Shown one piece after another: positions 11,069 through 39,400 of a DNA stretch of 64,000 nt. The number at the start of each line of letters is the position of its first letter. Position 1 is the stretch's first letter. The position numbers and the translations under genes were made by a program. The stretch is from Terrimicrobiaceae bacterium. GTDB lineage: Bacteria > Verrucomicrobiota > Verrucomicrobiia > Chthoniobacterales > Terrimicrobiaceae. The notes under the pieces are model-generated. The model searched no databases. It saw only the letters and a program-made list of their open reading frames with translations, and was not told the origin of the DNA. Where the stretch lies: NCBI GenBank assembly GCA_041738805.1, contig JBGSPC010000069.1:19610-83609 (forward strand), given 5' to 3'.

Positions 11069-11254
11069 GCGCCTTTGCAGGAGCAATATTCCGCTCTGTG
11101 TTGACGGATAACTCCTTCTCATCGTTGACGCCGGAAGCATCGACCAAAACAGAGGAGCTCAAGGCGAGTCCGTGCCCATTTTTGGAAGAGGTTGAAAACC
11201 ACGGTCGCTTCGCACAGGATGCGGTTGCGCATACCCGTCGCTCCTCTGCAATCC

Positions 11255-13237
11255 ATGACCCTCTCTCTCAACAAGCCCAAGCTCGACAATCTCGCCTCCG
11301 ACATCTGGAAATCCGCCGAGCGACTCCGTGGAAAGTTCAAGTCCTACGAATACCAGAGCGTCATCCTACCCATCATCGTCATTCGCCGATTGGAGTGTGT
11401 GCTCCTTGATTGGCGGAAGAAAAAATCAATCGAAGTGCTGAAAAAGCGGCCAAAGCTCACTGAGAAGGAACTCGCCAAGCTGGTCAAGGAATTGGAGTTG
11501 AACCCCAAGCAGTGCCCCTTCTCAAACACCACGGACTGGACGCTCCACTCGATCTATGCGGAAGACCACTCGCTACTGGAGGAGAACTTCCGCGCCTATA
11601 TCAATGGGTTCTCGAAGAATGTCGATGACATCATTGAGCACTTCAACTACCGCGCCACCATCGGCCTGATGGTGAAGAACAACCGGTTGGCTCCGATCCT
11701 GAATCAATACAAGGAACTCGCGTTCGGCCCCGACCAGCTCTCCGGGCTGGAGATGGGCTACGTTTACGAGGAATTGCTCCGGCGCTTCTCAGAACAAAGT
11801 GGTGACGAAGCCGGGGAGCACTTCACTCCGCGCGAAGTCGTCCGTCTGATGGTCGAGTTGCTGGATATTCCCATTCCGGACAAGCACCTCTCGATTTACG
11901 ACCCCGCCAGCGGTACGGGCGGCATGTTGTCGGTGACAAAGGAGCACCTGCTGGAGCGTGCCAACAAACCGGAGGAAAAGGCACGGGTGGAGAAATACGT
12001 CACAGTTCACGGGCAGGAGCTTTCCCCCACGAACTACGCGGTTTGTCAGGCCGACCTCCTCATCAAGAACGACCGGCAGGCCACCGTCCACCTCGGCAAC
12101 TCGCTCATCCCTCACGACAAGGATAGCAAAGAGCCAGGTGACCAGTGGCCGGAGCCGAAATGGCGCTTCAACCGGATGCTCAGCAACCCGCCCTTCGGTG
12201 TCACCTGGGGCGGTAAGGATGGCTACGAAAAAGAAGCCCGCAAGCTGGAGAAAACCCGCTACCGGGCCGGGATGCCGCGCGTGAATGATGGCGCGCTGCT
12301 CTTTTTGCAAACCATGCTGGCGAAGATGGCCCCGCCGGAAGAAGGCGGTAGCCGGATCGCCATCATCTTCAATGGCTCGCCCCTCTCGAATGGGGATTGC
12401 GGCTCCGGCGAGAGTGAGATTCGCCGCTGGATTTTGGAAAACGACTGGCTCGACGCCATTGTTATGCTGCCTGACCAGCTCTTCTACAACACCGGGATCT
12501 TCACCTATGTCTGGCTGCTGCGAAACGACAAGCCAGCCAGCCACAAAGGCCGTGTGATGCTCATCGATGCCCGCAAGCAATTTGAGAAAGAGCCGAAATC
12601 CTTTGGCAACAAGCGCCACCGCATCACCGATGCCCACCGCGCATGGATTGAGGAGCGTTACACCAAAGGTTGGGCGAAGGGCTATGCCGACGACCACGTC
12701 AAAATATTCCCGTGCGAGGACTTTGCCTATCACAAAGTCAGCGTCGTCTTCTGGCAGACGGATGAACACGACCAGCCCGCCACCATTACCGAGCCTTACG
12801 AAAGGGCCTTCACTGCCGCGAACGTGAAGAAAGAACAGGACTTCCACGAGAGCGACCTGACTTTCCGCGTGAGGGTGAAGGCCAAGAGCAAGGAGAAGAC
12901 CGTCGAGTTCACCGTCAAGGCAAAGGACAACGCCGCGAAGAAGTTCAAGGAGGCGCTGGCCGATGCTGACGAAACACTCTCCGTCGAATGGACGCACCGT
13001 CACTACGTGCAAGATGACGAATACATCCCGCACGGCGAGGACATCGAGGCGTTCCTAAAACGCGAAATCGCCAAACCGATCATCCGCTGGGCGGACGGCC
13101 CGCAGCTCGGCTACGAAATCCTGCCGAACAAATACTTCTATCGCTACCAACCGCCCACGCCTGCGAAGGACTTGCTGGCCGAGTTCTGGAAGCTGGAGAA
13201 GGACGCGGAGAAGATGCTGGAGGGTCTCGCCAAATGA
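11255..13237 (+). CDS. hsdM: Type I restriction-modification system methyltransferase subunit HsdM (N6-adenine)
   Basis: It has the typical HsdM N-terminus (LDNLASDIWKSAERLRGKFKSYEYQSVILPIIVIRRLECVL) and SAM-binding motif I (DPASGTGGML). The catalytic NPPF motif is present (LSNPPFGVTWGG). The ORF track start at 11192 extends upstream, and the internal ATG at 11255 fits HsdM alignment better. Confidence 0.9.
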   Translation: MTLSLNKPKLDNLASDIWKSAERLRGKFKSYEYQSVILPIIVIRRLECVLLDWRKKKSIEVLKKRPKLTEKELAKLVKELELNPKQCPFSNTTDWTLHSIYAEDHSLLEENFRAYINGFSKNVDDIIEHFNYRATIGLMVKNNRLAPILNQYKELAFGPDQLSGLEMGYVYEELLRRFSEQSGDEAGEHFTPREVVRLMVELLDIPIPDKHLSIYDPASGTGGMLSVTKEHLLERANKPEEKARVEKYVTVHGQELSPTNYAVCQADLLIKNDRQATVHLGNSLIPHDKDSKEPGDQWPEPKWRFNRMLSNPPFGVTWGGKDGYEKEARKLEKTRYRAGMPRVNDGALLFLQTMLAKMAPPEEGGSRIAIIFNGSPLSNGDCGSGESEIRRWILENDWLDAIVMLPDQLFYNTGIFTYVWLLRNDKPASHKGRVMLIDARKQFEKEPKSFGNKRHRITDAHRAWIEERYTKGWAKGYADDHVKIFPCEDFAYHKVSVVFWQTDEHDQPATITEPYERAFTAANVKKEQDFHESDLTFRVRVKAKSKEKTVEFTVKAKDNAAKKFKEALADADETLSVEWTHRHYVQDDEYIPHGEDIEAFLKREIAKPIIRWADGPQLGYEILPNKYFYRYQPPTPAKDLLAEFWKLEKDAEKMLEGLAK

Positions 13238-14361
13238 AAAAGACTACAGATGCCACTCTGGCGATTAGCGCCGACTACCGCCAGTTCATCGAAGAACTGA
13301 AGGCGCGCGTGGTTTCTGCACGCATCTCTGCCGCCCGGGCCATCACTCACGAGGCTATCCTTCTCTACTGGGACATCGGACAAGGGATCGTGGAAAGACA
13401 GCAGTCTCACGGCTGGGGGGATGCTGTCGTCGAAATGGTTGCTGCGGATCTGCGGGAGGCATTTCCAGGGGCAAAAGGCTTCTCTCCACAGAACGTCTGG
13501 CGCATGCAGCAGTTCTATCTCGTTCATAATCAGCAAGAATTTCTCGCACAACTTGTGCGAGAAATGGAGAAGGATGGTAAAAAGGCACCAACTCCTGAAA
13601 ATCTCTCACAGGTTGTGAGAGAAATGGTTTCGCTCGTTCCGTGGGGACACCATGTCAATGCCCTCACCCGAGTTACCGACCCTGCCGCCCGGCTCTGGTA
13701 TCTCCGTGCCACCGCCCGCTTCGGTTGGTCGCGCAATGTGCTGCTCAATCAGATCAAGGCCGGGGCCTACGAACGTGCCGTGACGGAGAAGAAGACGCAT
13801 AACTTCGATCTCGCCCTGCCGGAACACTTCGCGGAGCAGGCGGACGAGATGCTCAAGAGTTCCTACAACCTCGAATTTCTCGGCATCCGCCGCGCTGTGC
13901 GTGAACGCGAACTCGAAGACCGGCTCATCTCCCGCCTGCAAGCATTTCTTCTCGAACTGGGCTATGGCTTCTGCTTCGTCGGACGGCAGCACCGCATCGC
14001 ACTGGGCAGGAAAGAGTATTTTATCGATCTGCTCTTTTATCACCGCTTCCTCAAGGCCCTCGTCGCCTTCGATCTCAAGGTCGGCCCTTTCGAGCCGGAA
14101 TTCGCGGGCAAGATGGATTTTTACCTGAATCTCCTCAACGACAAGGAACGCGGCCCCGACGACCAGCCTTCCATCGGCATCATCCTCTGCGCGGAAAAGG
14201 ATGACGTGGAGGTCGAGTATGCCCTGCGCTCAAAGGCCAATCCCATTGGCGTCGCCGCTTACGAATTGCAGTCGAAACTGCCAGGCGAGTTGAAGGGCAA
14301 ACTGCCGACGGCAAAACAGCTAGCGGATATGGTGCGGGGGGAAATGGAGGGGGGGAAATGA
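13234..14361 (+). CDS. YhcG-like DUF1016 / PD-(D/E)xK nuclease-family protein embedded between hsdM and hsdS
   Basis: It overlaps the hsdM stop by 4 nt (ATGA). The N-terminal domain (ISAARAITHEAILLYWDIGQGIVERQQ...WGDAVVEMVAADLREAFPGAKGFSPQNVWRMQQFY) is characteristic of the YhcG/DUF1016 family. The C-terminal region carries a PD-(D/E)xK-like core (FIDLLFYHRFLKALVAFDLKVG). This family is commonly found inside type I RM loci. Confidence 0.75.
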   Translation: MKKTTDATLAISADYRQFIEELKARVVSARISAARAITHEAILLYWDIGQGIVERQQSHGWGDAVVEMVAADLREAFPGAKGFSPQNVWRMQQFYLVHNQQEFLAQLVREMEKDGKKAPTPENLSQVVREMVSLVPWGHHVNALTRVTDPAARLWYLRATARFGWSRNVLLNQIKAGAYERAVTEKKTHNFDLALPEHFAEQADEMLKSSYNLEFLGIRRAVRERELEDRLISRLQAFLLELGYGFCFVGRQHRIALGRKEYFIDLLFYHRFLKALVAFDLKVGPFEPEFAGKMDFYLNLLNDKERGPDDQPSIGIILCAEKDDVEVEYALRSKANPIGVAAYELQSKLPGELKGKLPTAKQLADMVRGEMEGGK

Positions 14362-15686
14362 ACGACACCCTCGCAGCACAATCGCTGTGGCCTGTTGCCC
14401 GGATCAAAGATCATGTATCGAAGATCGGGAGCGGTGTCACGCCATCCGGCGGCGCTGCGTCGTATCTCGATGCCGGTGTTCCTTTGTTGCGAAGTCAGAA
14501 CGTGCATTTTGATGGATTGCGGCTTGATGACGTAGCGTTCATCGCTGCCGAAACTCATGATGAGATGAGCGGCACTAAATTAAAGGCGCGTGATGTGCTG
14601 CTGAACATTACTGGAGCTTCCATCGGTCGTTGCGCTTTTGTGCCCGACAGTTTTGGCGAAGGGAACGTCAACCAGCATGTGTGCATCATTCGCCCGACGG
14701 CGAGACTTGATCACAGGTTCCTGACCTACTGCCTGTCTGCTCATTGGGGACAGGACCAAGTCTTTTCCAGTTTCACCGGAGCTTCGCGGCAGGGCTTGGG
14801 CCAGCGCGATCTCGGCGCGATTCAAGTGCCGCTTCCCCCGCTGCCACAGCAACAGCGCATCGCGGCGTATCTGGACGCAAGTTGCGCGGCGATTGACGCG
14901 GCGGTAGCCGCCAAACGCCGCCAACTCGAAACCCTGAATGATCTTCGCTCTTCAATCATCTGCCGCGCTGTCACACACGGGTTGAACCCTAAAGTGGCAT
15001 TGAAATCTTCCGGGATGGACTGGAGCCCAGAGGTTCCCGCCCACTGGCAAGTCCGGCAGATCAAACGCCTGTGCAGTTTAGTTCGCGGCCAGTTTACTCA
15101 TAGGCCAAGAAACGACCCGGCCCTCTACGACGGCCCGTATCCATTTATCCAGACCGGCGACATCACAGCCGCAGGGAAATATATCCGCACCCATTCCCAG
15201 ACGCTCAACGAGCTCGGGTTGAGCGCGAGCAAGCAATTTCCCCGTGGCACTCTCGTCATGTCCATCGCAGCCAACATCGGGGACGTAGCCATCCTCGATT
15301 TTGAAGCCTGTTTCCCGGACAGCATGATTGGGATGATTCCCGGCCACAAAACCAATCTCGATTTCCTTTATTACCTCATGCGCTCCATGCGGGGCATCAT
15401 GCTGCGTTCTGCTGTTCAGAGCACGCAGCTCAATCTGAACTACGTCCGCATCGGGACGAACTTCGCGCCTGTCCCCCCGCTGACGGAGCAAAAGGCCATT
15501 GCGGAATACCTCGATGCGAAAGAGCATGAATCGCAGTTGATTTGCACCACCATCCAATCCCAAATCGCCACCCTCACCGCCTACCGCAAATCGCTAATCC
15601 ACGAATGCGTCACCGGCCAGCGGCGGGTTACGGAAGCGGACGTGCGTGCAATTCGGGAGAAAATCCCTACAATGGCCAAAGCATAA
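14358..15686 (+). CDS. hsdS: Type I restriction-modification specificity subunit HsdS (two target recognition domains)
   Basis: It overlaps the upstream stop by 4 nt. Two variable TRD halves are each followed by the conserved HsdS spacer motif (LPPLPQQQRIAAYLDASCAAIDAAV and PPLTEQKAIAEYLDAKEHESQ). Confidence 0.85.
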   Translation: MNDTLAAQSLWPVARIKDHVSKIGSGVTPSGGAASYLDAGVPLLRSQNVHFDGLRLDDVAFIAAETHDEMSGTKLKARDVLLNITGASIGRCAFVPDSFGEGNVNQHVCIIRPTARLDHRFLTYCLSAHWGQDQVFSSFTGASRQGLGQRDLGAIQVPLPPLPQQQRIAAYLDASCAAIDAAVAAKRRQLETLNDLRSSIICRAVTHGLNPKVALKSSGMDWSPEVPAHWQVRQIKRLCSLVRGQFTHRPRNDPALYDGPYPFIQTGDITAAGKYIRTHSQTLNELGLSASKQFPRGTLVMSIAANIGDVAILDFEACFPDSMIGMIPGHKTNLDFLYYLMRSMRGIMLRSAVQSTQLNLNYVRIGTNFAPVPPLTEQKAIAEYLDAKEHESQLICTTIQSQIATLTAYRKSLIHECVTGQRRVTEADVRAIREKIPTMAKA

Positions 15687-15695
15687 GGCTGAACC

Positions 15696-16805
15696 ATGCC
15701 CGAATTGGATTACATCACTGTCAAAGGATTCAAGAGTATCGCTTCCATCGATAAGTTGAAGCTCGGGGCAATCAACGTCGTCATTGGTCCGAATGGTTCG
15801 GGAAAATCGAACTTCATTGGAGTGTTTTCCTTCCTGCACGCCATCCGTGAGGGGCATCTTCAGGAATATGTTCTCAAAGCTGGAGGTGCAGAAAAGGTGC
15901 TTCATTTTGGATCGAAAGCCACAAAGAACATCCATTTGCATATCTCGTTCCGTGACGGCGTGAATCAGTATGAATTGGATTTGACGCCAACAGCCGGGGA
16001 TGAACTGGTTCCCGTCGCTGAGTGGGTCTATTTTTGGAACAAGGCCCAATATCCTGATGGTCCTACAGGTCGGGGGGTCAACCGCATTGGCAAAGAAGCA
16101 GGGATCAGCGCTCCCAAAGGCCAGCCAATTGCCGCCTACGTTCGCAATCATTTGGATAGCTGGCGGCTATACCATGTCCATGACACAAGCAGCAGTTCGC
16201 CCATGAAAAAGACGGCGGATGTGAACGACAACCGTTATCTGCGCCCCGATGGATCCAACATTGCTCCCTTTCTTTATTATCTGCGAGAAAAGCATGAGAC
16301 CGCCTACAGCCTGATTCGTCGTACGGTTCAGCGAGTTGCCCCATTTTTTGATGATTTCCAGTTGGAGCCGCAAAAACTCAATCCGGACAAAATTCTGTTG
16401 GAGTGGAAACACAAGGGCTCGGATGCGTATTTCGATGCCTCGTCGCTGTCGGACGGCTCCTTGCGGTTTATTGTTTTGGCGACACTTTTCCTCCAGCCCG
16501 AGTCCTATCGTCCCTCGGTCATCCTTGTGGATGAGCCCGAGCTCGGACTGCATCCCTATGCAATCACGATGCTGGCCTCTCTTGTGAAGCAGGCCTCCAC
16601 AAAGACGCAGGTCATCATTTCCACCCAATCCCCGCTGTTACTTGATCACTTTCAACCCGAGGATGTGCTGGTGGCGGATCGTGTGGGCGGCGGCACTCAG
16701 TTCACCCGACTGGAACCTGGCAAACTGAGCGGCTGGCTGGAGGACTACAGCTTGGGCCAACTCTGGGAGAAGAACGAGTTTGGGGGAAGGCCAACCCCGG
16801 AATAG
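15696..16805 (+). CDS. ABC/OLD-type AAA ATPase (AAA_15/AAA_21-like), first gene of a two-gene ATPase+TOPRIM module
   Basis: Walker A is at the N-terminus (VVIGPNGSGKSNFIGV), right after a KGFKSI..L start typical of OLD/RecF/SMC-like ATPases. A signature-like motif (SSLSDGSLRF) and Walker B / D-loop (ILVDEPELGLHP) follow, then a late His-loop region (VIISTQSP). It begins 9 nt after the hsdS stop. Confidence 0.8.
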   Translation: MPELDYITVKGFKSIASIDKLKLGAINVVIGPNGSGKSNFIGVFSFLHAIREGHLQEYVLKAGGAEKVLHFGSKATKNIHLHISFRDGVNQYELDLTPTAGDELVPVAEWVYFWNKAQYPDGPTGRGVNRIGKEAGISAPKGQPIAAYVRNHLDSWRLYHVHDTSSSSPMKKTADVNDNRYLRPDGSNIAPFLYYLREKHETAYSLIRRTVQRVAPFFDDFQLEPQKLNPDKILLEWKHKGSDAYFDASSLSDGSLRFIVLATLFLQPESYRPSVILVDEPELGLHPYAITMLASLVKQASTKTQVIISTQSPLLLDHFQPEDVLVADRVGGGTQFTRLEPGKLSGWLEDYSLGQLWEKNEFGGRPTPE

Positions 16806-16810
16806 GACCC

Positions 16811-17503
16811 ATGGCGCGCCTGTTCATCCATGTCGAAGGAGAGACGGAGGAAACGTTTGTGAACGTGGTGCTGGCCCCGCATCTTTACAGGCTTGGCTAT
16901 CAGAAAGTGAGTGCCCGCCTCCTAGGCAATTCGCGTAATCGGGATCGAAGGGGAGGGATTCGGAGTTGGGCTTCCGTTCGGGCAGACATCATCAACCACT
17001 TGAAGGAAGACCGCGAGTGCCTTGCCACAACCATGGTGGATTACTACGCATTGCCCAGAGAGGGACATGCAGCCTGGCCCGGACGCTTGGAAGCAGCATC
17101 CAGACCATTCCCCGAAAAGGCAACCCAGGTTCAGGCCGCATTGCTGGCGGATATTGCTGCCGAACTCGGTGACGAATTCAATCCTCGTCGATTCGTCCCC
17201 TACGTGATGATGCATGAATTTGAGGGATTGCTCTTCAGCGACTGCCAGCGATTTGCTGATGGAATCGGACGTCCGGAGCTGGCGACCAAATTTCAAGCGA
17301 TCCGGGATGCCTTTTCCTCCCCGGAGGAAATCAATGACAGCCCGATTACCGCGCCTTCCAAGCGTGTGGAGGCGCTCGTAGCCGGATATCAAAAGCCGCT
17401 GCTCGGTGCTCTGGCCGTGCTGGAAATTGGCTTGGACAAGATCGTGCAGGAGTGCCCGCATTTTCGGGCATGGGTGGAACAACTCGAAAACTGGGTGAGG
17501 TAA
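16811..17503 (+). CDS. DUF4276-like protein with TOPRIM-type N-terminal motif; partner of the upstream ATPase (candidate split OLD-family nuclease)
   Basis: This 230-aa protein begins 5 nt after the ATPase stop. Its N-terminus (LFIHVEGETEETFV) matches the TOPRIM conserved-glutamate strand seen in OLD-family, AriB and DUF4276 proteins. Its size and position fit the AAA_21+DUF4276 gene pairs found inside type I RM loci. The family assignment is from memory and was not computed. Confidence 0.55.
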   Translation: MARLFIHVEGETEETFVNVVLAPHLYRLGYQKVSARLLGNSRNRDRRGGIRSWASVRADIINHLKEDRECLATTMVDYYALPREGHAAWPGRLEAASRPFPEKATQVQAALLADIAAELGDEFNPRRFVPYVMMHEFEGLLFSDCQRFADGIGRPELATKFQAIRDAFSSPEEINDSPITAPSKRVEALVAGYQKPLLGALAVLEIGLDKIVQECPHFRAWVEQLENWVR

Positions 17504-20433
17504 TGGCTAGAAAGAAAAAAGCCCCGGAGCTGACGTTTCAGCAGCACATCGCGGATTACCTCATCCGCGAGCACGAGTATGGCAAGTTGGAGCAGGCCGA
17601 CATCACGGATACCGAGCACTTCATCGCCGAAGACCAGCTCTGGGCCTTCCTCAAAGCCACACAGGCCGACGCGCTGAAAAAGCTTACGGACGATTACGGC
17701 ACGGACGCAGGCGAGGAAGTCTTCAAGGCTCTGCGCAAGGAACTGGAACACACGCCGCTGTGGATGTTGTTCCGTCAGGGCTTGCCAGTACGCGGGTTGG
17801 AGTTCCGTCTTTTTTATCCCAAGCCGCGTTCCGCCGCGAGTGTCGCAGCCGCCAAATACACCGAGAACCGCATCACGTTCCGCCCGCATTTCATCTTCGG
17901 CGACGTAAACCATGAGATTGATTTCGTTTTCTATCTAAACGGTCTGCCCATCGTTGCTCTGGAACTGAAGCACGAAGCCAACCAGAACGTGCATGATGCG
18001 GTGTCGCAATTCACGAAACGAGACCACACCCACAAGATTTTCCAGCATCCGTTCCTCTACCTCGCCGCCGACACCAGCGACGCGATGGCCGCCACCGACC
18101 CGCGCAAGGAGGAGAACTTCCGCTGGCACAACATGGGGCTAAAGAATGAGCAAATCACGCCCAACCAGAATGAGTGTCCGGTTGAGTTCCTTTACCGAGA
18201 AGTGCTGTCGCAGGACCAGTTGTTGGAGGCGTTGTCATTCTTCCTTGTGCGCGTGCCCGAGCGTGAAGCCGAGGACGACAAACCCGCGCGCCCGGCGTCC
18301 ACAATCTTCCCGCGTTATCATCAGAGCCGTCTCGTGAGGAAGGTTGCAGAGGACATCACCGCCCACTTCACTGAGGCGGGTGACATCGGCAAAAAGTATC
18401 TGGCCGACCATTCGGCCGGCAGTGGCAAGACGCTCTCGATCTGCTGGCTGGCCGACCGTCTGCACAGCCTCTTCAAGCCCGGCACGAATGAGAAGCTGGT
18501 CGATATCTCGTTCATCCTCACCGACCGCAAATCCCTCGATACAAACATCCGCGAGGACATCGACAAATTCAGTCACCTTACGAACGTGGTGGGCATCGCA
18601 AAGCATTCATCCGATCTGCTGCGTTTCCTTCAGCAGCGAAAATCCATCATCGTCACAACACAGCAGAAGCTGGCCTATCTGCTTGAGGAACTGCAAAAGA
18701 ATTCGGAGCTGAAAAAGCTGCGCGTGGCCTTCCTGATTGATGAAGCCCATCGGTCGCAGGAAGGCCAGATGGGCGCAGCCATCCGGCTGCCATTCCGCAA
18801 AGAAGGCGAGCCAGACGAAGAAGATGCACCCGAGGAGGATCTCGAAGAGCAGATTGCCAAGGTCATTCGTGAGCATGACCTTAATCAGTTATTCGTCGCC
18901 TTCACGGCGACACCGTCCCCGGCCACGGTATCAATGTTTGGCAAGCCCTTTGACAGCTACACCGAGGCGGAGGCCATCGCGGAGGGCTACATCGTCGATG
19001 TGGCGGCGAGCATCATTTCCTACAAGACGCTCTACAACCTGCATTGCCCTATCGTTCCGCTGCCGCACGAAGAGAAGCTCTACCCCAGGGGTGTTGTGTC
19101 CAAGGCGCTCCAGAATGTGGCGTTTCAGGATGATGGCCTGATCCAATACAAGGCCGAGGTTATGCTCCGTCTTTTCGAAAAGGACGTGAAGCCTCTCATC
19201 GGCGGACGCGCCAAGGCAATGATTGTCACGTCTTCGCGCGTGGCCGGGCTGCGGTATTTCAACATCATCAAAGAGAAACTCAAAGAACGCGGTGCCGACT
19301 ACAAGGTGCTGTATGCGTTCTCGGATTTTGTCCACCCGGAGACGAACGCCGCCATCAGCGAATACGCTGTGAATGAATTGCAGGATGGCGAGTTGATCGA
19401 AAACCGATTTGAGGGCGATGACTACCGGATCATGGTCGTGGCGAACAAATTTCAGACCGGCTTCGACCAACCCTTGCTCGCGGGTATGTTCCTCGACAAG
19501 CCAGTGCTGGATCGCAACGCGGTGCAGACGGTCTCGCGCCTGAATCGGTGCCACCATGGGAAGAAAGACGTGGTCGTCGTGGACTTCACCAACAATGCCA
19601 AACAAATCCTCAAGGCCTTTGCGAAGTATCGGAAAGGCACGCCGTTCGAGCCTGAGGAGCCGGACGAGGGAACCTGCCTGAAACTGCACGCAGAAATTCT
19701 CGCTGCTGGGGTCTTCACCCAGAAGGACGCTGCCAATATGCTTGCGCTTCTCAGGAGCGGGACGGATGCGCAGGTGCAATTCCAAGTGAATGCCCTGCGG
19801 ACTCGCTTTCATGCGAAGTTCACCGACTGGCAAAACCGCAAGGCGTTCGTCTATTTGCTGGCCCGCTTCGTGAAGAGTTACCATTTCCTCACATGCTTCT
19901 TCACCTACCCGGCGGCGATTCAGGATTTTGCCATCTTCGCAGAGTGGGTCGGCCCGCAGCTTATCAAAGCCGGAACCGTCTCGGACCTGATGAAGCAGAT
20001 CCGCGCCACCGTGGTCACCAAGGCCGCGGTTCAATATCAAGGAGTGATGACCAGCGGCGGCCCGGTGAAGCTCCAGCCGGGGAAAGGCAAAGGCGGTGCA
20101 GGCCCGGTGCCAGTGAAGACCACCGTCCAGGACATGATCGCCGACATTCAAACGAAGTTTCAGATCACGGACGAAGAAGCCCTCTACATCAAACAGGTGA
20201 CCGAAGAAAAGATCGCCGATCCGGGTATCCGCACCACCGTCCACGCACACCGGAGCAACCACATTTACCTCGAAGGTCCGTATCGCGGACAGGTTAACGG
20301 TGACATTCAAACAACCTACGATGCTCGCGGCCGCTACGATGAACTCGCCGACCCGAAATACACTGATACCGGCGGCATCTTTGACATTATGGCTGTGACT
20401 GTCATCCAAACACATCTGGCGCTCGCTGCCTGA
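17504..20433 (+). CDS. hsdR: Type I restriction enzyme endonuclease subunit HsdR
   Basis: The start is at MARKKKAPELTFQQHIADYL, immediately after the TAA of the previous gene, with a GGTGAGG RBS. An N-terminal PD-(D/E)xK nuclease motif is present (IDFVFYLNGLPIVALELKHE). Helicase motif I is GSGKT (HSAGSGKTLSI) and the DEAH box is FLIDEAHRSQ. The downstream helicase C-terminal region includes QTVSRLNR. Confidence 0.9.
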
Positions 20434-30647: not shown

Positions 30648-31166
30648 ATGATCCAGCCGTCCATTCCTGAACCCTTCTCGCCAACCCATGTGATGCTGAC
30701 GTGGTTCAAAGATAAGCAAATGTCTTATGATTACTGCGAAGACAACAATATCATAACCTCCGGCATTGAGCTGAGTCATCTGGAGGTCCGCATTTTTTGT
30801 GGCACGACTCCCGAAGAATCACCGTTTCTGATCATCCGGTATCCCATGAGAGCCCCCGAATCCGTTCGGCCGTCCGTGGGAGAGTTTCTCATGCGCCTCA
30901 ATTTTGCGGCCAAGCGAAGCCTTTGTGAGCTGGATTTTAATGACGGAGAAATACGCTTTCGGATGGTGAGCGATTTGACCGGGAGTGCTTTCTCGCAGGA
31001 TCATTTTGCTGTCATGATGGGACAAATGCTTCTCTTTGCGGATATGGCCTATCCCTGTCTTGCAAGCGTCATGACCCGTGCTATGAAGCCGGACTTTGCG
31101 GCGGATCAGGCCTTGGCTGCCATTGATAAGGCGTTTCAGAATCTCTGTGGCGGCGAAGAGGATTGA
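30648..31166 (+). CDS. YbjN-like (putative sensory transduction regulator fold) protein
   Basis: A 172-aa acidic protein whose pattern (LSHLEVRIFCGTTPEESPFLIIRYPM...GEIRFRMVSDL) resembles the YbjN family. The similarity is weak. Confidence 0.35.
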   Translation: MIQPSIPEPFSPTHVMLTWFKDKQMSYDYCEDNNIITSGIELSHLEVRIFCGTTPEESPFLIIRYPMRAPESVRPSVGEFLMRLNFAAKRSLCELDFNDGEIRFRMVSDLTGSAFSQDHFAVMMGQMLLFADMAYPCLASVMTRAMKPDFAADQALAAIDKAFQNLCGGEED

Positions 31167-31247: not shown

Positions 31248-31751
31248 ATGATAGCAAAACTTATTAATCTCTCGCCATGGCCGGATCAAATGCTGAAACG
31301 TGCGGTGCGATCAGCCTGGCGGGATGGAACCTCAAGGGCCCTTATCTATGTGAGTGACCGGTGGTTTGATCACGGGCGACACATGGCTGGAGAAAATGAG
31401 CTGCCCGTGGATCACAACATCGGTTGGGATGGTGTTTGTTATTACGAGGAAAAGGTTCTTTATGTTTTTCTGAGTCGCAGCCTTGAGTTTCCCATGGTTT
31501 GGTGGGTCAACACCGGCTTCCCGGAAAGCTATCAACGCGGCATGGTCTTTTATTCACCCACCGAATATTTTATCTACTGCCTGGCCCATGAACTGTCCCA
31601 CATCTGGCAACATGACAACAAACGCCGGAAACGCCTCGGAACCGGGTTTGCATCATCGGATGATGAAATGGACGCCGATCTCTTTGCGATTCTGAAGCTC
31701 AACGAATACCGGCGTAAAACCGGCTTCAGGGACTATCAGGAAGCCCTCTGA
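31248..31751 (+). CDS. Hypothetical protein with HExxH zinc-metallopeptidase-like motif
   Basis: CLAHELSHIWQHD contains HELSH. No further family was recognised. Confidence 0.35.
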   Translation: MIAKLINLSPWPDQMLKRAVRSAWRDGTSRALIYVSDRWFDHGRHMAGENELPVDHNIGWDGVCYYEEKVLYVFLSRSLEFPMVWWVNTGFPESYQRGMVFYSPTEYFIYCLAHELSHIWQHDNKRRKRLGTGFASSDDEMDADLFAILKLNEYRRKTGFRDYQEAL

Positions 31752-31978: not shown

Positions 31979-34153
31979 ATGAGTTTTCTACAAGCCACCA
32001 TTCTCGGTCTTGCGATTTTTATCGTACTTGCCGCATTGTTTCTCCTGACCCTCTGCGTGAGGAAAATCCAGCCCGGCCGCGCCGGTGTCAAAACCGGGTT
32101 CGGCGGGCTTCAGGTCGCCTTCGATTGGATGGTGCGAATTCCACTTCTTCAGACCTATCATATTGTGGATATCTCGGTGAAAAAGCTGGAGATTACGCGC
32201 AAGGGCAAGGACGGGTTGGTCTGCCGGGACAACATCCGTGCGGACATCACGGTTGCGTTTTACATTCGTGTGGATGCCACGGTGGACAGCGTTCGCAAGG
32301 TGACGCAGATGCTCACGCCTGAGCGGGTTTCCGACATCGAACAACTTCGCGAGCTTTTTGAAGCCAAGTTTTCAGAGGCCCTCAAAACAGCTGGCAAACA
32401 AATGGATTTCCATGAGCTTTTTACCGAACGCCTGCGGTTCCGGGATGAAATTCAGGAGACCATTGGCAAGGACCTGGATGGGTTTCTTTTGCAGGACGTG
32501 GCCATCGATTATCTTGAGCAGGCCCCGCTGGATCAACATGACCCCAACAACGTGCTCGACTCAGAGGGTATCAAAAAAATCACGGAGATCACCCAGCGCG
32601 AGCGGGTGCTGGCCAACGAATTTTCGCAGCGCGCCCAGGTTCACGTGGAAAAAGAAAATGCCGATGCCGCGATTGCAAAGCGCGAGCAACAACGTCGCGA
32701 TGAGGAGGACATGGCCAAGCAGCATCGTGCGATCCTCGAAGTCAAAACCAACGAGGAAGCCGAAGCTCAAAAAGTCATTGAAATCCGCCGTCAGGATGTT
32801 GAGGCCAAACGCCTGGAGGCTGAAGAGGCCATTCGCTTGCGGACCGAGGACATGAACCGTGCGGTTCAGGAACGTCAGTTCACGGTCACCAAAGAAAAAC
32901 AACGCCTTGAGCAGGAATCCCTGCAGGAGGGCGAAGAGGCCAAGGTCCGCCGCGAGCGTTTGGTGGCTCTGGCCGAGATGGACAAACAGGTCAAAGTCGC
33001 AGATGCGGCCGTGGAGGTTGAACGCAAGCGGGCCATCGTCGTCACTGAACAAAAGGCCGTGGTCGAACAGGAGGAGGAGAAACGCAATATCGAGGCCCGA
33101 ATGACTGCCGAACGAACCCGCGAGGTGATTCTTATTGAAGCGGACATGAACGCCAAGAAGGAACAAGTCGTCAAGGTTGTTGCTGCGGAAGCTCAGAAGG
33201 AAGCGGAACGGAATATTGCCGAAGGCGAAAAAATCAAACTCATCACCGCTGCCGAAGCGGGTCGCGATGCCTCGCTGCGCGATGCCGAGCGTATTCAGAC
33301 GCTCGCTGATGCCGAGTCCAAGGCATCAGAGAAGCGGCGTCACGCCATGGAGCAGGAAGCCGAGGGCCTTGCCGCCAAACAAGCGGCTCCGGGCCTTGCC
33401 GAAGCGAAGGTCCTGACCGCTAAGGCCACCGCCCGCAAGGATCAGGCCGAAGCCGAAAAATTCGCCGGTCTTGCCGAGGCTGAAGTTTTCAGCGCCAAGG
33501 GAGCAGCCGAAGCGGCTGTTACCGAAAGCCAGGCCCAAGCTGATGCGGAGGGCATCAAGGACAAGGAACTTGCTGCGGCATCCGGCATTGAGGCCCGTGG
33601 ATTGGCCGAAGCCAAGAGCATCGAAGAAAAGGCAAAAGCCATGAAGCTCCTGCACGAAGCCGGACAACACCATGAAGAGTTCCGTCTCCGTCTTGCAAAA
33701 GATCGGGACATTGAACTGGCGGCCATCGAGGTCCAGAAATCCATTGCAGCATCTCACTCGGCACTGGTGGGAGAGGCTCTCAAAAGCGCCAAAATCGATA
33801 TCGTGGGCGGCGAGAACGACTTCTTCGAAAAAGTCGTCCGGGCCGTTGGTTCGGGCAAGGCCGTGGACCGCTATGTCGAAAACAGCCGCACCCTCACCGA
33901 TGTCAAAAATGCGTTTCTTGGGGGTGATTCTGAAAAACTCAAAGGTCAGCTCCGTCAGTGGATCAAAGATTTCGGTGTGACCAGCGAGGACCTTAAAAAC
34001 CTGAGTGTCGCCGCACTGATTGGGCGGATGCTTGCCACCACAGGAGACTCCAGTTTGAAGGGTCTGCTTGAATCCGCAAAGGCCCTGGCCACTGACAGCG
34101 GGTTGGCTGATCATCCGGCTGCCTCTCTGTTTTCCAAATCCCCCAAGGCGTGA
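31979..34153 (+). CDS. Flotillin-like SPFH/band-7 protein (YqiK/FloT-type) with long EA-rich coiled coil
   Basis: N-terminal TM helix (ILGLAIFIVLAALFLLTL). The SPFH domain is recognisable (VKTGFGGLQVAFDWMVRIPLLQTYHIVDISVKKLEI...ADITVAFYIRVD). It is followed by about 350 aa of Glu/Ala/Lys/Arg-rich heptad coiled coil typical of flotillins. Confidence 0.85.
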   Translation: MSFLQATILGLAIFIVLAALFLLTLCVRKIQPGRAGVKTGFGGLQVAFDWMVRIPLLQTYHIVDISVKKLEITRKGKDGLVCRDNIRADITVAFYIRVDATVDSVRKVTQMLTPERVSDIEQLRELFEAKFSEALKTAGKQMDFHELFTERLRFRDEIQETIGKDLDGFLLQDVAIDYLEQAPLDQHDPNNVLDSEGIKKITEITQRERVLANEFSQRAQVHVEKENADAAIAKREQQRRDEEDMAKQHRAILEVKTNEEAEAQKVIEIRRQDVEAKRLEAEEAIRLRTEDMNRAVQERQFTVTKEKQRLEQESLQEGEEAKVRRERLVALAEMDKQVKVADAAVEVERKRAIVVTEQKAVVEQEEEKRNIEARMTAERTREVILIEADMNAKKEQVVKVVAAEAQKEAERNIAEGEKIKLITAAEAGRDASLRDAERIQTLADAESKASEKRRHAMEQEAEGLAAKQAAPGLAEAKVLTAKATARKDQAEAEKFAGLAEAEVFSAKGAAEAAVTESQAQADAEGIKDKELAAASGIEARGLAEAKSIEEKAKAMKLLHEAGQHHEEFRLRLAKDRDIELAAIEVQKSIAASHSALVGEALKSAKIDIVGGENDFFEKVVRAVGSGKAVDRYVENSRTLTDVKNAFLGGDSEKLKGQLRQWIKDFGVTSEDLKNLSVAALIGRMLATTGDSSLKGLLESAKALATDSGLADHPAASLFSKSPKA

Positions 34154-34198
34154 TTCCCATTCCGGGAGGCTGACTCGCGCCTCCCGATTCGAAATCTC

Positions 34199-37100
34199 AT
34201 GGCGGACAAAGAAACAAAACCCGAAAAGGCTGAAGCAGCAGCTCCCGGGCCGTTGGGCAGTGCGACTTATGAGATCCTCCGTCAGCGTCTCGCCACGCAA
34301 ACGGGAATTCTCCGTGAGCGGATGGGATTGCTGGATGCCCGGCGTCAGGAGGTATTTGGATCCGTCGAATCGAAGCTGCTGCGAGCCGACCGGGTCAACA
34401 CGGCTCACAATTGCATCCCGAAAGACATGGTCCAACTGGGCGACGGGAGATTTCTTTTTGGGTTTAACATCCGGTTCGGACTCAAAAAAGTTACCGGGCT
34501 GGGAGACGTTTTTGGCATCTATGTGCGGGACGCGGAATCTTTCCGCGAGGATGCGCTGACACCACTCGAGCAGAAGGCTTTTCTCTCGGATTTTCAGCGA
34601 ATCCACACGGTTTACGAAAAAACGACGTTCTCCAAGTTTTCCCTGATTGAAGGCCATCTGTATATGGTGTTTCAAACCGGCTCGAGCGCCAGCGATATTG
34701 CCGTTTTTAAATGGGCCGTGGATGGCGGAACGCTGCGTTATGTGGATGGGCGCGCCGAGGCCGAATACCGCCGGGTGGGATTTCCTCCCCAACACAACTT
34801 TCGTTGGAGCACACCGGACCGGGAGTCTTATCGTTATGGCGATTTCCCGCACATCTCCATCGAGGAACGCGTTTTTGTGGAGTGCGTCGGTGGCACTCTG
34901 ACCGTTAAAATCGAGGACAACACCAAACGAGGCGAGGGCATCTATGCCGAGCCCGTCGATGACAAACGTCAGAAGGTCGATGATGCCGACATTTCGTATG
35001 CGATCCTCGGTCATTTGATCCTGCTGAAAATCCGGCCCTACAAAGAGCAGGCTTTCCGGTATTTGATTTTCAACGAAAAAACGCAGGCGGTTATTCGTGT
35101 CGATTCCATTGGCCAGTCCTGTGCGGCCCTTCCCGAAGATCACGGGATCATTTTTCCTGATGGGTATTATCTCGGAACAGGCGAACTGAAACTTTTTGGT
35201 TCACGTGCCGAAGACCACACGCTGGAACGGATTCTTCATGCGCCCAATGGAGAGGATTCGCTTTATGTGTTTTATTCTCTGACGACAGGCGAATACGTGC
35301 TGCTCCCCTACCGGCTGATCGCGCAGAAGGTCGAGGAGAGGATCACGTGTCATGGATTTTCACTTTTCCCGAATGGGCATTTGGTGCTTTTCCGTGCGGA
35401 CAACGAACCGCAGAAGCATCACATGATCCAACTGCGGCAGACCCCGTTTTATCAACCGGGGTTCGAGCCGGAAGGAAAACAGGAAGCCTTTCTTTATCAG
35501 GTGGGCAACCGGGAGGTCGTGCGTTGCCTTGCGGAGTGCAATGAGATCCTGACCCTTGCCGGAAAGGACAATCCTTATGCTCAGCTCTATACGGATTTGG
35601 TGGCCCGCTGCACCGGTATTTTGGATGGATACCCGTGGTTGTCGAATGAAGAGGGATTCGGGGTCGATGCGGCACTGAAGGATCTGCGGGAGGCTTCCAA
35701 TCGGGCCGTGGATGAGTTCGACAAAGTCCTCCGGCTTCAGCGGGCTGCCGTCGCGCAGGTTGAAGAGATTCAGAAACGCACCACCATGCGCTTTCAAGAC
35801 ATCCGGCGGGCCAGCTTCAAATCTCTCGATGATTTTGTGCGGAATCTCGCCGCTCTGCGTTCGCTCACCGGCGAACTGATCAGCCTCCGCGAGGTGCGGT
35901 ATATTCACATCCCGGCACTTGAGGAACTTGGCAAACAGGTTGCTGAGGAAAGTGGTCGGCTCTCCGAAGCCTGCGTGACCTACCTGCTGAAACCCGAAGC
36001 CTTGGAGCCTTACCGTGTCGCGGCTTCTGATCAACTGGCAGCGGCCGAAGGTGTGACGAAGGTCGCTGACGCCAAAACGATTGAGGCGGGAGTCACTCAA
36101 ACCAGCGCGGACCTCGAGATGCTCATCGAGATTGTCAACAGCCTCAAAATCGGGGATGCAACCGAGACCACCCGCATCATTGATGGGATCACGGCTGTCT
36201 ACACCACGCTGAATCAGGTTCGTGGGGCTCTCAAAAACCGGCTTCACACGTTGGTTGCCGCGGAGGGCGCAGCCCAGTTCTCCGCGCAGATGAAACTGCT
36301 GGGCCAGTCAGCGGCCAGTTATCTTGATCTCTGCGATACCCCCGCCAAGTGCGAGGAATACCTCAACCGCATGAGCGTCCAGATCGAAGAGATGGAAGGG
36401 GCCTTTGCGGACTTCGACGAGTACATCGTCCAGATCTCTGATCGCCGCACGGAACTCTACGAAGCGTTTGAGCAGCGGAAAGTCGCTATCATCGAAGCGC
36501 GCAACAAACGCGCTTCGGCCCTAATGACCGCCGCTGACCGCATCTTAAAGGTTGTGGGAAACAGGCTCGCGGGCTTTAAGACGGTGGAGGAAATCCACAC
36601 GTATCTGGCCTCGGATATGATGATCAGCAAGGTGCGGGAAACGGCCGCGCAGTTGCTGGAGCTTGGTGACTCGGTGAAGTCCGACGATCTCACCACCCGC
36701 CTCAAAAGCCTTGGCCAGGAAGCTGTCCGTCAGCTCAAAGACCGCCAGGAGCTTTTCAAATCCGGACCGGGAGTGATCCAGCTCGGACGTCATGCTTTTA
36801 ACGTCAACACCCAACCCTTGGATATCACCATGGTCCATCGGGACGGTGAGCAGTTTGTTCATCTGACAGGAACCCGCTACTTTGACCCCATCACATCCCC
36901 GGAGTTTTTGGCAACGCGCGAGGCATGGGATCAGGAATTTGTTTCTGAAAATCCTGACGTCTATCGAGCCGAAACATTGGCGAGTCATTTGCTGAGATCC
37001 CTCGAAGCTCAGCCCAAACGTCCACTTTCCGGGATAGCCGCCATGCCGGAGGCCGGACGTCTAACCCTGGTTCAAGAGTTTATGGCGGGGCGCTATGAGG

Positions 37101-39400
37101 AGGGATACATCCGCGGAATCCATGATTTGGATGGAGCACAAATTTTTGATGCCCTGCTAAACGCCCACGTGGGATTGGAATTGGCCCGATACCGTCCGCA
37201 CTCGCGGGCCATGGCCGTCGTTTATTGGCTGAAGTTTTGTGATCCTGAAATCCGGTCGGTGTGGGAAGCCCGACTGAAAGGGTTTGCAGAGAGGAACCGG
37301 ATCTTTCCGGGGGATCCCACCCAGAGGGATTATATCGATGGACTGCGCGGGCTTCTGGAAGAGTTTGCGAAGACCACAAAAATGGCCCCGCCCGATCTGG
37401 CCGCTGAGGCTGCAGAATATCTGTTTCTCGAAATCACTGGCGGCGAAACCTATGTCTGCGCACGTGAGGCCGATGAGCTCGTTTCGGCGTTCCGTCAGCA
37501 CCTTGTGACCAAAGGTGGGGAAGACGCATTTCGTTCAGCCATGGAAAGCCTCACCGCTCATCCACTCAATCAATTCGAACTCACGCGGGATTGGCTGCGG
37601 GGTTTTCTGATCGAGAACAGAACCTCGGCGGCATATTTGGACGAGGCGGCGGCTGTGATTTTCTGTGGTGATTCCATGAACCGCAAGGTTGTCACGGCAG
37701 CCACGCGCAAAGAGTTGGAGGGCTTTAAGGGCACGCATCCCCATATCAAATCAGGGGAGTACACTTTCGATTATCTCGACCTCCGCACACGCCTGGATCT
37801 TTTCGAGCAAACCGTGGTCCCCCGATTCCGTGATTACCACTCCCGGAAACAATCTCTCATTGAAAAGGAGCGTGCCGCGCTCCGGCTTAAGGAATTTGTT
37901 CCGAAGGTCCTCACTTCCTTTGTGCGAAACCAGCTTATCGATCATGTTTACCTGCCTTTGGTGGGAGACAACCTTGCCAAACAAATTGGCACCGCAGGCG
38001 ATTCCAAACGCACCGACCGCAGTGGCCTTCTCCTGCTGGTCTCGCCCCCGGGCTACGGAAAAACCACCCTGCTCGAATACCTTGCCAGCCGTTTGGGCAT
38101 CGTGTTCGTCAAGATCAACGGTCCCGCCATTGGCTTCACAACAACATCTTTGGATCCTGAGGAAGCCCCGAATGCCGCCGCCCGCGAAGAGATTCAAAAA
38201 CTCAATCTCGCCCTTGAGATGGGGGACAATGTCATGATCTGTGTGGACGATATTCAGCATTGTCATGCTGAATTTCTTCAAAAGTTTATTTCCCTCTGCG
38301 ATGCCCAACGCAAAATCGAAGGGGTCTGGCGTGGACGTTCCCAGACCTACGACCTTCGCGGTCGCAAAGTGGTGGTTGTCATGGCCGGCAATCCCTACAC
38401 CGAAACCGGCCAAAAATTCCGGCTCCCGGACATGCTCGCAAACCGCGCGGATACCTACAACCTGGGCGATATCATCGGTGGCAATGATGCGTGGTTTAAA
38501 GCCAGCTACATCGAAAACGCCGTCACCTCCAATCCGGTCCTCGCCCCGCTCGCCAACCGCAGCCAAAAGGACATCCGCACGTTTTTAAAAATGGCAGAAA
38601 CAGGAGAGCGCGACACGTCAGCCTTTGAGGCCAGCTATTCGGCACAGGAAGTGGAAGAAGTCCTCTCCGTTCTCAAAAAACTGATTGCTGTTCGTGAGGT
38701 GATTCTCGCGGTGAATCAGGAATACATCCGCTCAGCCGCGCAGGCCGACGAGTTCCGGACCGAGCCTCCGTTCAAACTCCAGGGCTCCTACCGAAACATG
38801 AACCGCCTCGCTGAAAAAATTGTGGCCATCATGAATGATCAGGAGGTGCAGGCCCTTATCCTTGATCATTACCGCAACGAGAGCCAAACCCTGACGACCG
38901 ACACAGAGGCCAATCTCCTCAAACTCCGCGAACTCCTTAAAATTCTGACGCCCGAAGAAACCGCGCGCTGGGAGGACATCAAACGCACCTTCCAACGAAA
39001 CCAGCTCACGCACAGTCATGGAGACAGCGATCCGGTGGGGCGTGTGGTCGGTCAGCTCTCAGCGTTTGGAGAAGGGCTCACTTCGATTCAGCGTACCTTG
39101 GCCGCTGGCATGGAAGCCGCCAAAGAATCCCGCACGGCTGATTCCACAGAACGAATGCGCAGTGTTATTCACGAACTCGAGATGGTCCATGCCACCATGG
39201 CCTCTCTCCGTGATATGGCTCTCCAGCAGCGCGATTATCTCCAGGGTGCCCGGGAACAACTCGCCATCCGTGCCAAGCAAGGGGTCATTGAATTCGAACT
39301 CACTGACGAAATGCTCAACAACGAAAAAGAATTCCTCGACCGCTTCCAGGAAATGCTTGCGGAGCGTGACGCAAAGCCTGAGAAGCCAGCGGCAGAGTAG
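34199..39400 (+). CDS. Giant (1733 aa) uncharacterised protein with C-terminal AAA_5 (MoxR/McrB/dynein-like) ATPase module; begins 45 nt after the flotillin gene
   Basis: Walker A is LLLVSPPGYGKTTLLEYLA (around nt 38030). Walker B/DExx is NVMICVDDIQHCH, and the sensor/beta-sheet region is VVVVMAGNPYTE (around nt 38380). The N-terminal roughly 1250 aa and C-terminal roughly 300 aa have no recognisable family. The protein is continuous with no frameshift, and nothing on the opposite strand is convincing. Confidence 0.7.
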   Translation: MADKETKPEKAEAAAPGPLGSATYEILRQRLATQTGILRERMGLLDARRQEVFGSVESKLLRADRVNTAHNCIPKDMVQLGDGRFLFGFNIRFGLKKVTGLGDVFGIYVRDAESFREDALTPLEQKAFLSDFQRIHTVYEKTTFSKFSLIEGHLYMVFQTGSSASDIAVFKWAVDGGTLRYVDGRAEAEYRRVGFPPQHNFRWSTPDRESYRYGDFPHISIEERVFVECVGGTLTVKIEDNTKRGEGIYAEPVDDKRQKVDDADISYAILGHLILLKIRPYKEQAFRYLIFNEKTQAVIRVDSIGQSCAALPEDHGIIFPDGYYLGTGELKLFGSRAEDHTLERILHAPNGEDSLYVFYSLTTGEYVLLPYRLIAQKVEERITCHGFSLFPNGHLVLFRADNEPQKHHMIQLRQTPFYQPGFEPEGKQEAFLYQVGNREVVRCLAECNEILTLAGKDNPYAQLYTDLVARCTGILDGYPWLSNEEGFGVDAALKDLREASNRAVDEFDKVLRLQRAAVAQVEEIQKRTTMRFQDIRRASFKSLDDFVRNLAALRSLTGELISLREVRYIHIPALEELGKQVAEESGRLSEACVTYLLKPEALEPYRVAASDQLAAAEGVTKVADAKTIEAGVTQTSADLEMLIEIVNSLKIGDATETTRIIDGITAVYTTLNQVRGALKNRLHTLVAAEGAAQFSAQMKLLGQSAASYLDLCDTPAKCEEYLNRMSVQIEEMEGAFADFDEYIVQISDRRTELYEAFEQRKVAIIEARNKRASALMTAADRILKVVGNRLAGFKTVEEIHTYLASDMMISKVRETAAQLLELGDSVKSDDLTTRLKSLGQEAVRQLKDRQELFKSGPGVIQLGRHAFNVNTQPLDITMVHRDGEQFVHLTGTRYFDPITSPEFLATREAWDQEFVSENPDVYRAETLASHLLRSLEAQPKRPLSGIAAMPEAGRLTLVQEFMAGRYEEGYIRGIHDLDGAQIFDALLNAHVGLELARYRPHSRAMAVVYWLKFCDPEIRSVWEARLKGFAERNRIFPGDPTQRDYIDGLRGLLEEFAKTTKMAPPDLAAEAAEYLFLEITGGETYVCAREADELVSAFRQHLVTKGGEDAFRSAMESLTAHPLNQFELTRDWLRGFLIENRTSAAYLDEAAAVIFCGDSMNRKVVTAATRKELEGFKGTHPHIKSGEYTFDYLDLRTRLDLFEQTVVPRFRDYHSRKQSLIEKERAALRLKEFVPKVLTSFVRNQLIDHVYLPLVGDNLAKQIGTAGDSKRTDRSGLLLLVSPPGYGKTTLLEYLASRLGIVFVKINGPAIGFTTTSLDPEEAPNAAAREEIQKLNLALEMGDNVMICVDDIQHCHAEFLQKFISLCDAQRKIEGVWRGRSQTYDLRGRKVVVVMAGNPYTETGQKFRLPDMLANRADTYNLGDIIGGNDAWFKASYIENAVTSNPVLAPLANRSQKDIRTFLKMAETGERDTSAFEASYSAQEVEEVLSVLKKLIAVREVILAVNQEYIRSAAQADEFRTEPPFKLQGSYRNMNRLAEKIVAIMNDQEVQALILDHYRNESQTLTTDTEANLLKLRELLKILTPEETARWEDIKRTFQRNQLTHSHGDSDPVGRVVGQLSAFGEGLTSIQRTLAAGMEAAKESRTADSTERMRSVIHELEMVHATMASLRDMALQQRDYLQGAREQLAIRAKQGVIEFELTDEMLNNEKEFLDRFQEMLAERDAKPEKPAAE

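Follow-up and report, generated by a model that had tools for sequence, protein, structure and literature searches.

Described systems related to the locus

Flotillins are conserved from bacteria to humans, and we know of no driver of their assembly or turnover. They build large cages (10.1101/2024.05.09.593390), other SPFH proteins also assemble into large rings or cages (10.1101/2024.05.09.593390; PMC12048511), and for SPFH assemblies working with AAA+ machines there is a precedent in HflK/C-FtsH (PMC12048511). The closest described system is an operon reported by Ravi et al. in 2024 (mSystems, PMC11237479; preprint 2020), composed of CesT/Tir-PspA, YqiJ-YuaF, band-7-flotillin and 'beta-propeller + coiled-coil + AAA+ ATPase' genes, together with abbreviated operons of wider distribution; the role proposed there on computational grounds is chaperone-like and concerns sub-membrane dynamics (PMC11237479). 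Here, we describe a reduced version of this system in a 64,000-nucleotide (nt) stretch of contig JBGSPC010000069.1 from a Terrimicrobiaceae bacterium, hereafter the window, whose coordinates are used throughout. It consists of two co-directional open reading frames (ORFs) located 45 nt apart on the forward strand, one encoding a flotillin of 724 amino acids (aa) (31979-34153, +) and the other a giant AAA+ ATPase of 1733 aa (34199-39400, +), in agreement with the gene layout given by an earlier reading of the sequence alone (the sequence-only reading). The pairing of flotillin and giant is already in print as a computational observation, to which the window contributes one more member, reduced to two genes, and not a discovery; the value of the present analysis therefore lies in confirmation, in the fold class of the motor, and in a testable mechanism. 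Literature searches found no later work on the giant ATPase.

Conserved linkage of the flotillin and giant genes

Homologues of the giant fall into 436 clusters (50% identity) at E < 1e-30 among 1.8 billion representative proteins, and at least 589 species genomes out of 185,579 scanned carry a member of the family. Gene neighbourhoods were surveyed at 80 loci from Verrucomicrobiota, Planctomycetota, Bacteroidota, Desulfobacterota, Clostridia and Fibrobacterota (individual related loci are given as L numbers); one of them bears no label beyond 'proteobacterium'. Linkage was counted in the 65 loci whose upstream DNA extends over 2.5 kb or more. In 63 of these 65, spread over six or more phyla, the gene directly upstream of the giant, on the same strand, encodes a flotillin homologue, the gap between the two having a median of about 200 nt. 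This answers in the affirmative the question, set beforehand, of whether homologues of the giant co-occur with SPFH genes. This linkage supports the proposal, made in the sequence-only reading, that the flotillin and the giant AAA_5-type ATPase constitute one uncharacterised membrane-associated machine. The pairwise identities of the two proteins also co-vary (r 0.756; 0/999 permutations). The closest named homologue of the giant is from Terrimicrobiaceae, and full-length identity ranges from 62 to 91% across Verrucomicrobiota and from 27 to 91% among full-length homologues overall. Since the flanks already differ between relatives at 91-94% identity, with MutS upstream of the pair in L083 and an amidohydrolase upstream in L084, only the flotillin-giant pair itself is conserved.

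The flotillin

As judged from profile comparisons, the first protein (31979-34153, +) is a YqiK-type flotillin with an SPFH domain and a transmembrane (TM) anchor, followed by a long coiled coil and a conserved C-terminal region. The sequence-only reading had recognised a flotillin with a TM anchor and long coiled coil, and both elements could be placed: the N-terminal TM helix spans aa 7-27 (31997-32059, +; Kyte-Doolittle 19-residue window 2.98) and is the sole hydrophobic segment, and the coiled-coil region covers about aa 200-560 (32576-33658, +), a helix of ~360 aa with 63% E/K/R/Q/A and 1 proline in 361 aa, which aligns with the coiled coil of YqiK. Between them lies the SPFH/Band_7 domain at aa 29-170 (32063-32488, +; PF01145, E 9.7e-14, 52.2 bits against a cut-off of 23.6). 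This match was obtained with aa 28-226 (199 aa) scanned alone; the full-length protein gave no Pfam or NCBIfam match (none at E < 0.1), and all 120 of 120 flotillin homologues come without a precomputed Pfam domain. Because PF01145 passes its cut-off once the coiled coil is removed and not at full length, the coiled coil masks the SPFH match. Alignment of the flotillin family profile with E. coli YqiK (hhalign) gave a probability of 99.8%, an E-value of 2.7e-29 and 31% identity, and extended over flotillin aa 11-451 and YqiK 17-444, taking in the SPFH domain as well as the coiled coil after it. Homologues of the window flotillin are named flotillin/YqiK by both NCBI and JGI.

Among the closest known systems are YqiJ-YqiK of E. 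coli and YuaF-FloT of B. subtilis, pairs of an NfeD-like protein and a flotillin. The window flotillin is a clear YqiK homologue, and in related loci the flotillin gene is directly preceded by a YqiJ-like one, an arrangement shared with E. coli; however, yqiK is followed by sibD/ibsD with no giant ATPase downstream, E. coli YqiK is shorter (553 aa versus 724 aa, the coiled coil being longer in the window protein), and the window is devoid of a YqiJ-like gene.

The giant ATPase

The second protein (34199-39400, +; 1733 aa) belongs to a DUF3686-DUF7902-AAA+ family, as indicated by its Pfam matches and by full-length collinear homologues down to about 27% identity. A scan for TM segments found none, and the protein is predicted to be soluble. 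The sequence-only reading had regarded some 1250 aa of its N-terminus as unassignable, which no longer holds, as PF12458 (residues 38-478) and PF25472 (600-682) both match there; both are families of unknown function, and on these matches the N-terminal region is assignable to families, not to a function. From N- to C-terminus, the region includes a β-rich, propeller-like DUF3686 domain at aa 38-478 with an N-terminal helix at aa 21-53 (34310-35632, +; PF12458, E 6.5e-161), a long helical-bundle/coiled-coil stalk at aa 431-851 (35489-36751, +) that contains DUF7902 at aa 600-682 (35996-36244; PF25472, E 3.9e-23), and, as predicted with AlphaFold 2 (AF2), a small β domain at aa 859-897, a helical domain at aa 923-1159 and a second small β unit at aa 1162-1191 (36773-37771, +), the last stretch giving no match in a Pfam scan. 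Two AF2 models with predicted local distance difference test (pLDDT) values of 73 and 83 were obtained from 39-sequence alignments. In the model of aa 1-1200 (mean pLDDT 83; mostly 85-94 within aa 980-1200), the helix at aa 21-53 precedes about 28 strands at aa 59-414 and ~420 residues of long helices at aa 431-851, which lead into the β unit, helical domain and β unit mentioned above. Foldseek searches with this model returned weak β-propeller matches (E about 1e-4), and no solved structure related to the giant at the sequence level was found. Axonemal dynein heavy chains (8glv_DA, E 1.3e-5; 7k58_C) and IFT-A also appeared in these searches, in long alignments whose TM-scores of about 0.1 make them not interpretable. 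MoxR proteins are considered the nearest prokaryotic relatives of dynein AAA domains.

The AAA+ α/β core occupies aa 1241-1425 (37919-38473, +) and contains Walker A (38051-38068; GYGKTT at aa 1285-1290), Walker B (38246-38257; DDIQ at aa 1350-1353), the VVVVMAGNP segment (aa 1391-1399) with the sensor-1 GNP (38387-38395), and the invariant R1416. The sequence-only reading had assigned an AAA_5/MoxR-type core from GYGKTT around nt 38060, DDIQ and VVVVMAGNP; all three motifs are at those places, and AAA_5 scores above its Pfam threshold (29.4 versus 22 bits). It had also described ~300 aa of helical C-terminus after the core, which was borne out: a lid and a conserved helical region (aa 1426-1600; 38474-38998, +), which carry the invariant EPPFKLQGSYRNM motif, are followed by a variable helical tail (aa 1601-1733; 38999-39397, +) of low pLDDT, whose majority fraction in the family alignment is 0.19 and whose gaps amount to 45%. 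Across phyla, residues 21-1600 align collinearly and nearly without gaps, with the AAA+ core the most conserved part and the last ~130 residues alone varying, so that arm and motor evolve as one unit. Among 24 diverse members (down to 29% identity), the invariant positions are Walker A, a D-D Walker B, the sensor-1 N1398, R1416, taken as the arginine finger, and the C-terminal EPPFKLQGSYRNM motif. Walker B, DDIQH (aa 1350-1354, nt 38246-38260), is D-D and not D-E in all 24 members, which come from several phyla.

In sequence as in predicted fold, the AAA+ module comes nearest to MoxR proteins, its fold being closest to those of the MoxR chaperone-like ATPases CbbQ and NorQ. The model shows a β-hairpin (model residues 222-227 and 230-235) between α3 and β4, as in the pre-sensor-1 insert clades, and only a loop at the site of the helix-2 insert, so that the helix-2 insert hairpin of MoxR proteins is not evident. 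Compared with the MoxR ATPases that work with VWA partners (CbbQ-CbbO, NorQ-NorD and RavA-ViaA), which are stand-alone proteins of ~300-350 aa, the giant is a 1733-aa fusion with ~1240 aa placed N-terminal to the AAA+ module; its sequence identity to CbbQ/NorQ is only 14-15%, its Walker B is D-D, and a VWA/MIDAS partner was not found in the protein or its neighbourhood. The search for VWA/MIDAS gave no match in the flotillin, the giant or the ten flanking ORFs scanned, in line with the absence of a VWA partner remarked upon in the sequence-only reading, nor among the scanned recurrent neighbour families (YqiJ-like, PspA, XRE-S24 and CesT). Because two usual features of the family fail, namely a D-E Walker B and a VWA adaptor, the giant was not filed as a MoxR protein proper, although it probably works like a MoxR ATPase.

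The wider cassette

All flanking ORFs of the loci were clustered to find recurrent neighbours. A YqiJ/NfeD-like gene lies upstream of the flotillin in 50 related loci, in the order YqiJ-like, flotillin, giant; its product is ~220 aa long, has several TM segments, weakly resembles YqiJ_N and matches E. coli YqiJ in BLASTP at E 7e-6. Bacteroidota cassettes add PspA/IM30 (PF04012, E 2.5e-40), CesT_Tir_1 and a divergent XRE-S24 regulator, the PspA and CesT/Tir genes being present in 12-16 Bacteroidota loci. Besides these cassette genes, no neighbour recurs in more than 8 loci, and the wider cassette comprises membrane or envelope-stress proteins only. The survey thus recovers the full Bacteroidota set of the published operon (XRE-S24, CesT, PspA, YqiJ, flotillin and giant) as well as abbreviated versions, and the gene order in Dokdonia donghaensis (ANH61663.1) given in Table S3 of that study is the order recovered here (PMC11237479). 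The present work differs from it in that the ATPase is placed beside the MoxR proteins CbbQ and NorQ, no fold class having been given there, and in that the window represents the most reduced form, in which YqiJ/YuaF-like, PspA and CesT_Tir_1 genes were not found in 64 kb (PMC11237479).

The YqiJ-like gene is lacking in the window and in its nearest relatives (L001-L008, L010, L083 and L084). When the 64-kb window was searched with profiles in all six frames, and with tblastn for the YqiJ-like protein, no YqiJ-like, PspA, CesT_Tir_1 or XRE-S24 gene was found, which extends to the whole window the earlier remark that NfeD is absent at the locus. The YqiJ/NfeD-like gene belongs to the ancestral cassette and is missing only in the lineage of the window, which carries a minimal, two-gene version from a Verrucomicrobiota lineage; a YqiJ/NfeD-type partner is a usual companion of the flotillin, not a strict requirement.

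Two small ORFs precede the flotillin in the window. The first (30648-31166, +; 172 aa) has a weak YbjN-like match below threshold, corresponding to a type III secretion chaperone-like fold, and recalls the CesT-like gene of Bacteroidota; it is missed by the CesT_Tir_1 profile and is not conserved in close relatives. The second (31248-31751, +; 167 aa), directly upstream of the flotillin, contains an HExxH motif (HELSH) and shows sub-threshold likeness to the small zincin-like metallopeptidase families M78, MPTase-PolyVal and DUF3920; it is not at that position in L083 and L084. Being absent next to the pair in close relatives, neither ORF is part of the unit.

Other features of the window

The intergenic spacer (34154-34198, +; 45 nt) contains a short GC hairpin (34163-34185) that folds no better than shuffled sequences (z -1.16) and is partly conserved in L083 and L084, and a terminator search between the flotillin and giant genes found no convincing one. 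In other loci, the spacer is a recurrent landing site of small selfish ORFs (L001/L002 at 8586-9664, L024, L032, L034, L036 and L080), the insert in L001/L002 comprising an IS200-type Y1 transposase and a 217-aa ORF. Two further clusters of candidate endonuclease-like ORFs (c14 and c27; about 140-185 aa) lie between flotillin and giant in several Bacteroidota and Verrucomicrobiota loci. An antisense ORF of 605 aa (33326-35143, -) over the flotillin coiled coil and the start of the giant was rejected as an artefact of the GC-rich repeats that code for the coiled coil; in several related loci, this shadow ORF had likewise been picked by mistake (cluster c10). Elsewhere in the window, a 2595-aa protein (2469-10256, +) was identified by Pfam as a single-module highly reducing type I polyketide synthase with the organisation KS-AT-DH-cMT-ER-KR-ACP.

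Proposed function and alternative explanations

Taken together, the two genes probably encode an ATP-driven remodeller that is coupled to the flotillin. Held by one TM helix, the flotillin would use its coiled coil to oligomerise, as expected from other SPFH proteins, and would form a large ring or cage at the inner membrane, on the side that faces the cytoplasm. MoxR proteins form hexamers, and the single MoxR-class AAA+ module of the soluble giant may likewise assemble into a hexameric ring, with six projecting arms, each of about 1250 residues and made of helical bundles with a propeller-like DUF3686 tip, that would dock on the flotillin assembly at the cytoplasmic face. ATP hydrolysis in the ring would then remodel this assembly, through scaffold assembly, disassembly or turnover, or through client extraction or insertion, and the microdomain would thereby stay dynamic under envelope stress. 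The YqiJ/NfeD-like membrane protein would be a third component in most lineages, and PspA may join in Bacteroidota. In this scheme, the gene linkage, the domains, the ATPase motifs and the MoxR-like predicted fold are direct results of the analysis, and hexamerisation, the flotillin contact, and the direction and substrate of remodelling are what we infer from them. The proposed logic resembles that of Vps4 with ESCRT-III, in which an AAA+ ring recycles a membrane-bound polymeric scaffold, and PspA is found in the extended Bacteroidota operon. PspA is the bacterial ESCRT-III homologue. A functional coupling of an SPFH-family scaffold to a membrane AAA+ machine is also seen in HflK/C-FtsH and in mitochondrial prohibitin/m-AAA (PMC12048511). 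FtsH, however, is a membrane-embedded AAA+ protease of the classical clade, enclosed on the periplasmic side, whereas the giant is predicted to be soluble, cytoplasmic and MoxR-like, and has no protease domain.

A more specific version, in which the giant would be the founding member of flotillin-cage remodellers, with a hexameric MoxR-type motor and six propeller-tipped arms assembling or stripping SPFH scaffolds with ATP, is offered as a tentative possibility whose chances we place below even. Several observations weigh against a flotillin-coupled remodeller. The D-D Walker B is present in every member aligned, and its invariance suggests that the motor may be slow or switch-like. The VWA/MIDAS protein, the usual MoxR adaptor, was not detected by the domain searches, and the structural evidence comes from the two AF2 models with pLDDT values of 73 and 83, built from alignments of 39 sequences. 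Two loci, L021 and L048, encode a giant with no flotillin within 8-10 kb. The complex may differ in the lineage of the window, because the YqiJ-like partner is lacking there.

The strongest competing explanation, though a rather unlikely one, is client-directed quality control, in which the flotillin would serve as a platform or adaptor and the AAA+ ring would chaperone, extract or assemble other membrane or sub-membrane proteins in the microdomain, by analogy with HflK/C gating FtsH or with MoxR ATPases maturing metal enzymes. It is established that the MoxR relatives CbbQ and NorQ, to which the fold was matched here, remodel specific client enzymes and not their own scaffold. SPFH cages control how substrates reach an AAA+ partner (PMC12048511), and about 10% of the giants have no flotillin next to them. 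However, no candidate client gene recurs, the recurrent neighbours being only the YqiJ-like gene, PspA, CesT and the regulator; a protease or other effector domain was not found in the giant, and its tight 1:1 linkage with one flotillin subfamily suits a direct partner equally well.

It is highly improbable that the pair is an anti-phage or conflict system, composed of an SPFH membrane sensor and a McrB/MoxR-like NTPase. The sequence-only reading had suggested that SPFH and McrB-like modules recur in defence islands, for which no support was found at this locus. What speaks for such a role is that some defence loci contain SPFH and AAA_5-type modules, together with a type I restriction R subunit 11.5 kb upstream in the window, an AbiEii-like gene downstream in L084, and the small selfish ORFs and IS200-type transposase between the two genes in some loci. 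In contrast, PADLOC matches of both proteins are only at the level of Walker A or coiled coil (E >= 5.6e-4), no nuclease, protease, TIR or other effector domain was found in them, the flanks are housekeeping genes that differ between close relatives, and the recurrent partners are envelope-stress proteins. The full-length identity of 62-91% across Verrucomicrobiota is also unlike that of fast-evolving defence genes, and no relative occurs among 2.9 million viral contigs. The R-subunit-like protein (17452-20433, +; HSDR_N, ResIII/SWI2_SNF2 and T1R_D3) is unlinked to the flotillin in relatives, and ORFs at 11192-16805 may be the matching M and S subunits. The AbiEii-like toxin gene (L084 10006-10815, -; faint Pfam match) lies directly downstream of the giant in the contig of the closest flotillin relative and is absent from the window.

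A function as a DNA repair ATPase, which we hold to be extremely unlikely, would follow the Pfam title of the DUF3686 family PF12458, 'ATPase involved in DNA repair', and the NCBI product name 'DNA repair ATPase' of homologues; a weak resemblance of the helical region to the SMC-like PADLOC model LmuB (E 5.6e-4) and the MutS gene adjoining the pair in one relative, L083, point the same way. A literature search nevertheless found no mention of DUF3686, PF12458 or DUF7902, no DNA-binding, nuclease or helicase domain was found, RuvB matches are confined to the Walker A region and fall far under threshold, the MutS adjacency is not conserved, and the conserved partners are all membrane proteins. 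The database name is without support from the domain searches performed here and is probably a mislabel. Finally, that the gene order is coincidental, with flotillin and giant working independently, is barely credible despite the two loci without a flotillin (L021 and L048), since synteny, with order, strand and short spacing kept in 63/65 loci from six or more phyla while the surroundings change, already appears to make it very unlikely.

Implications

Correction of the database annotation seems worthwhile for both proteins, as the giant carries the 'DNA repair ATPase' label and the SPFH domain of the flotillin is missing from precomputed tables. The giant is carried by cultured and, in some cases, genetically tractable Bacteroidota and Planctomycetota; Dokdonia, Hymenobacter, Leeuwenhoekiella and Symmachiella are examples of cultured carriers. 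Encoded almost always beside a flotillin, it is an obvious candidate for the factor that drives flotillin assembly or turnover. If the giant is indeed a cage remodeller, bacterial membrane microdomains would undergo active turnover, in the way that Vps4 turns over ESCRT-III, and the giant would be the first energy-dependent regulator of any flotillin.

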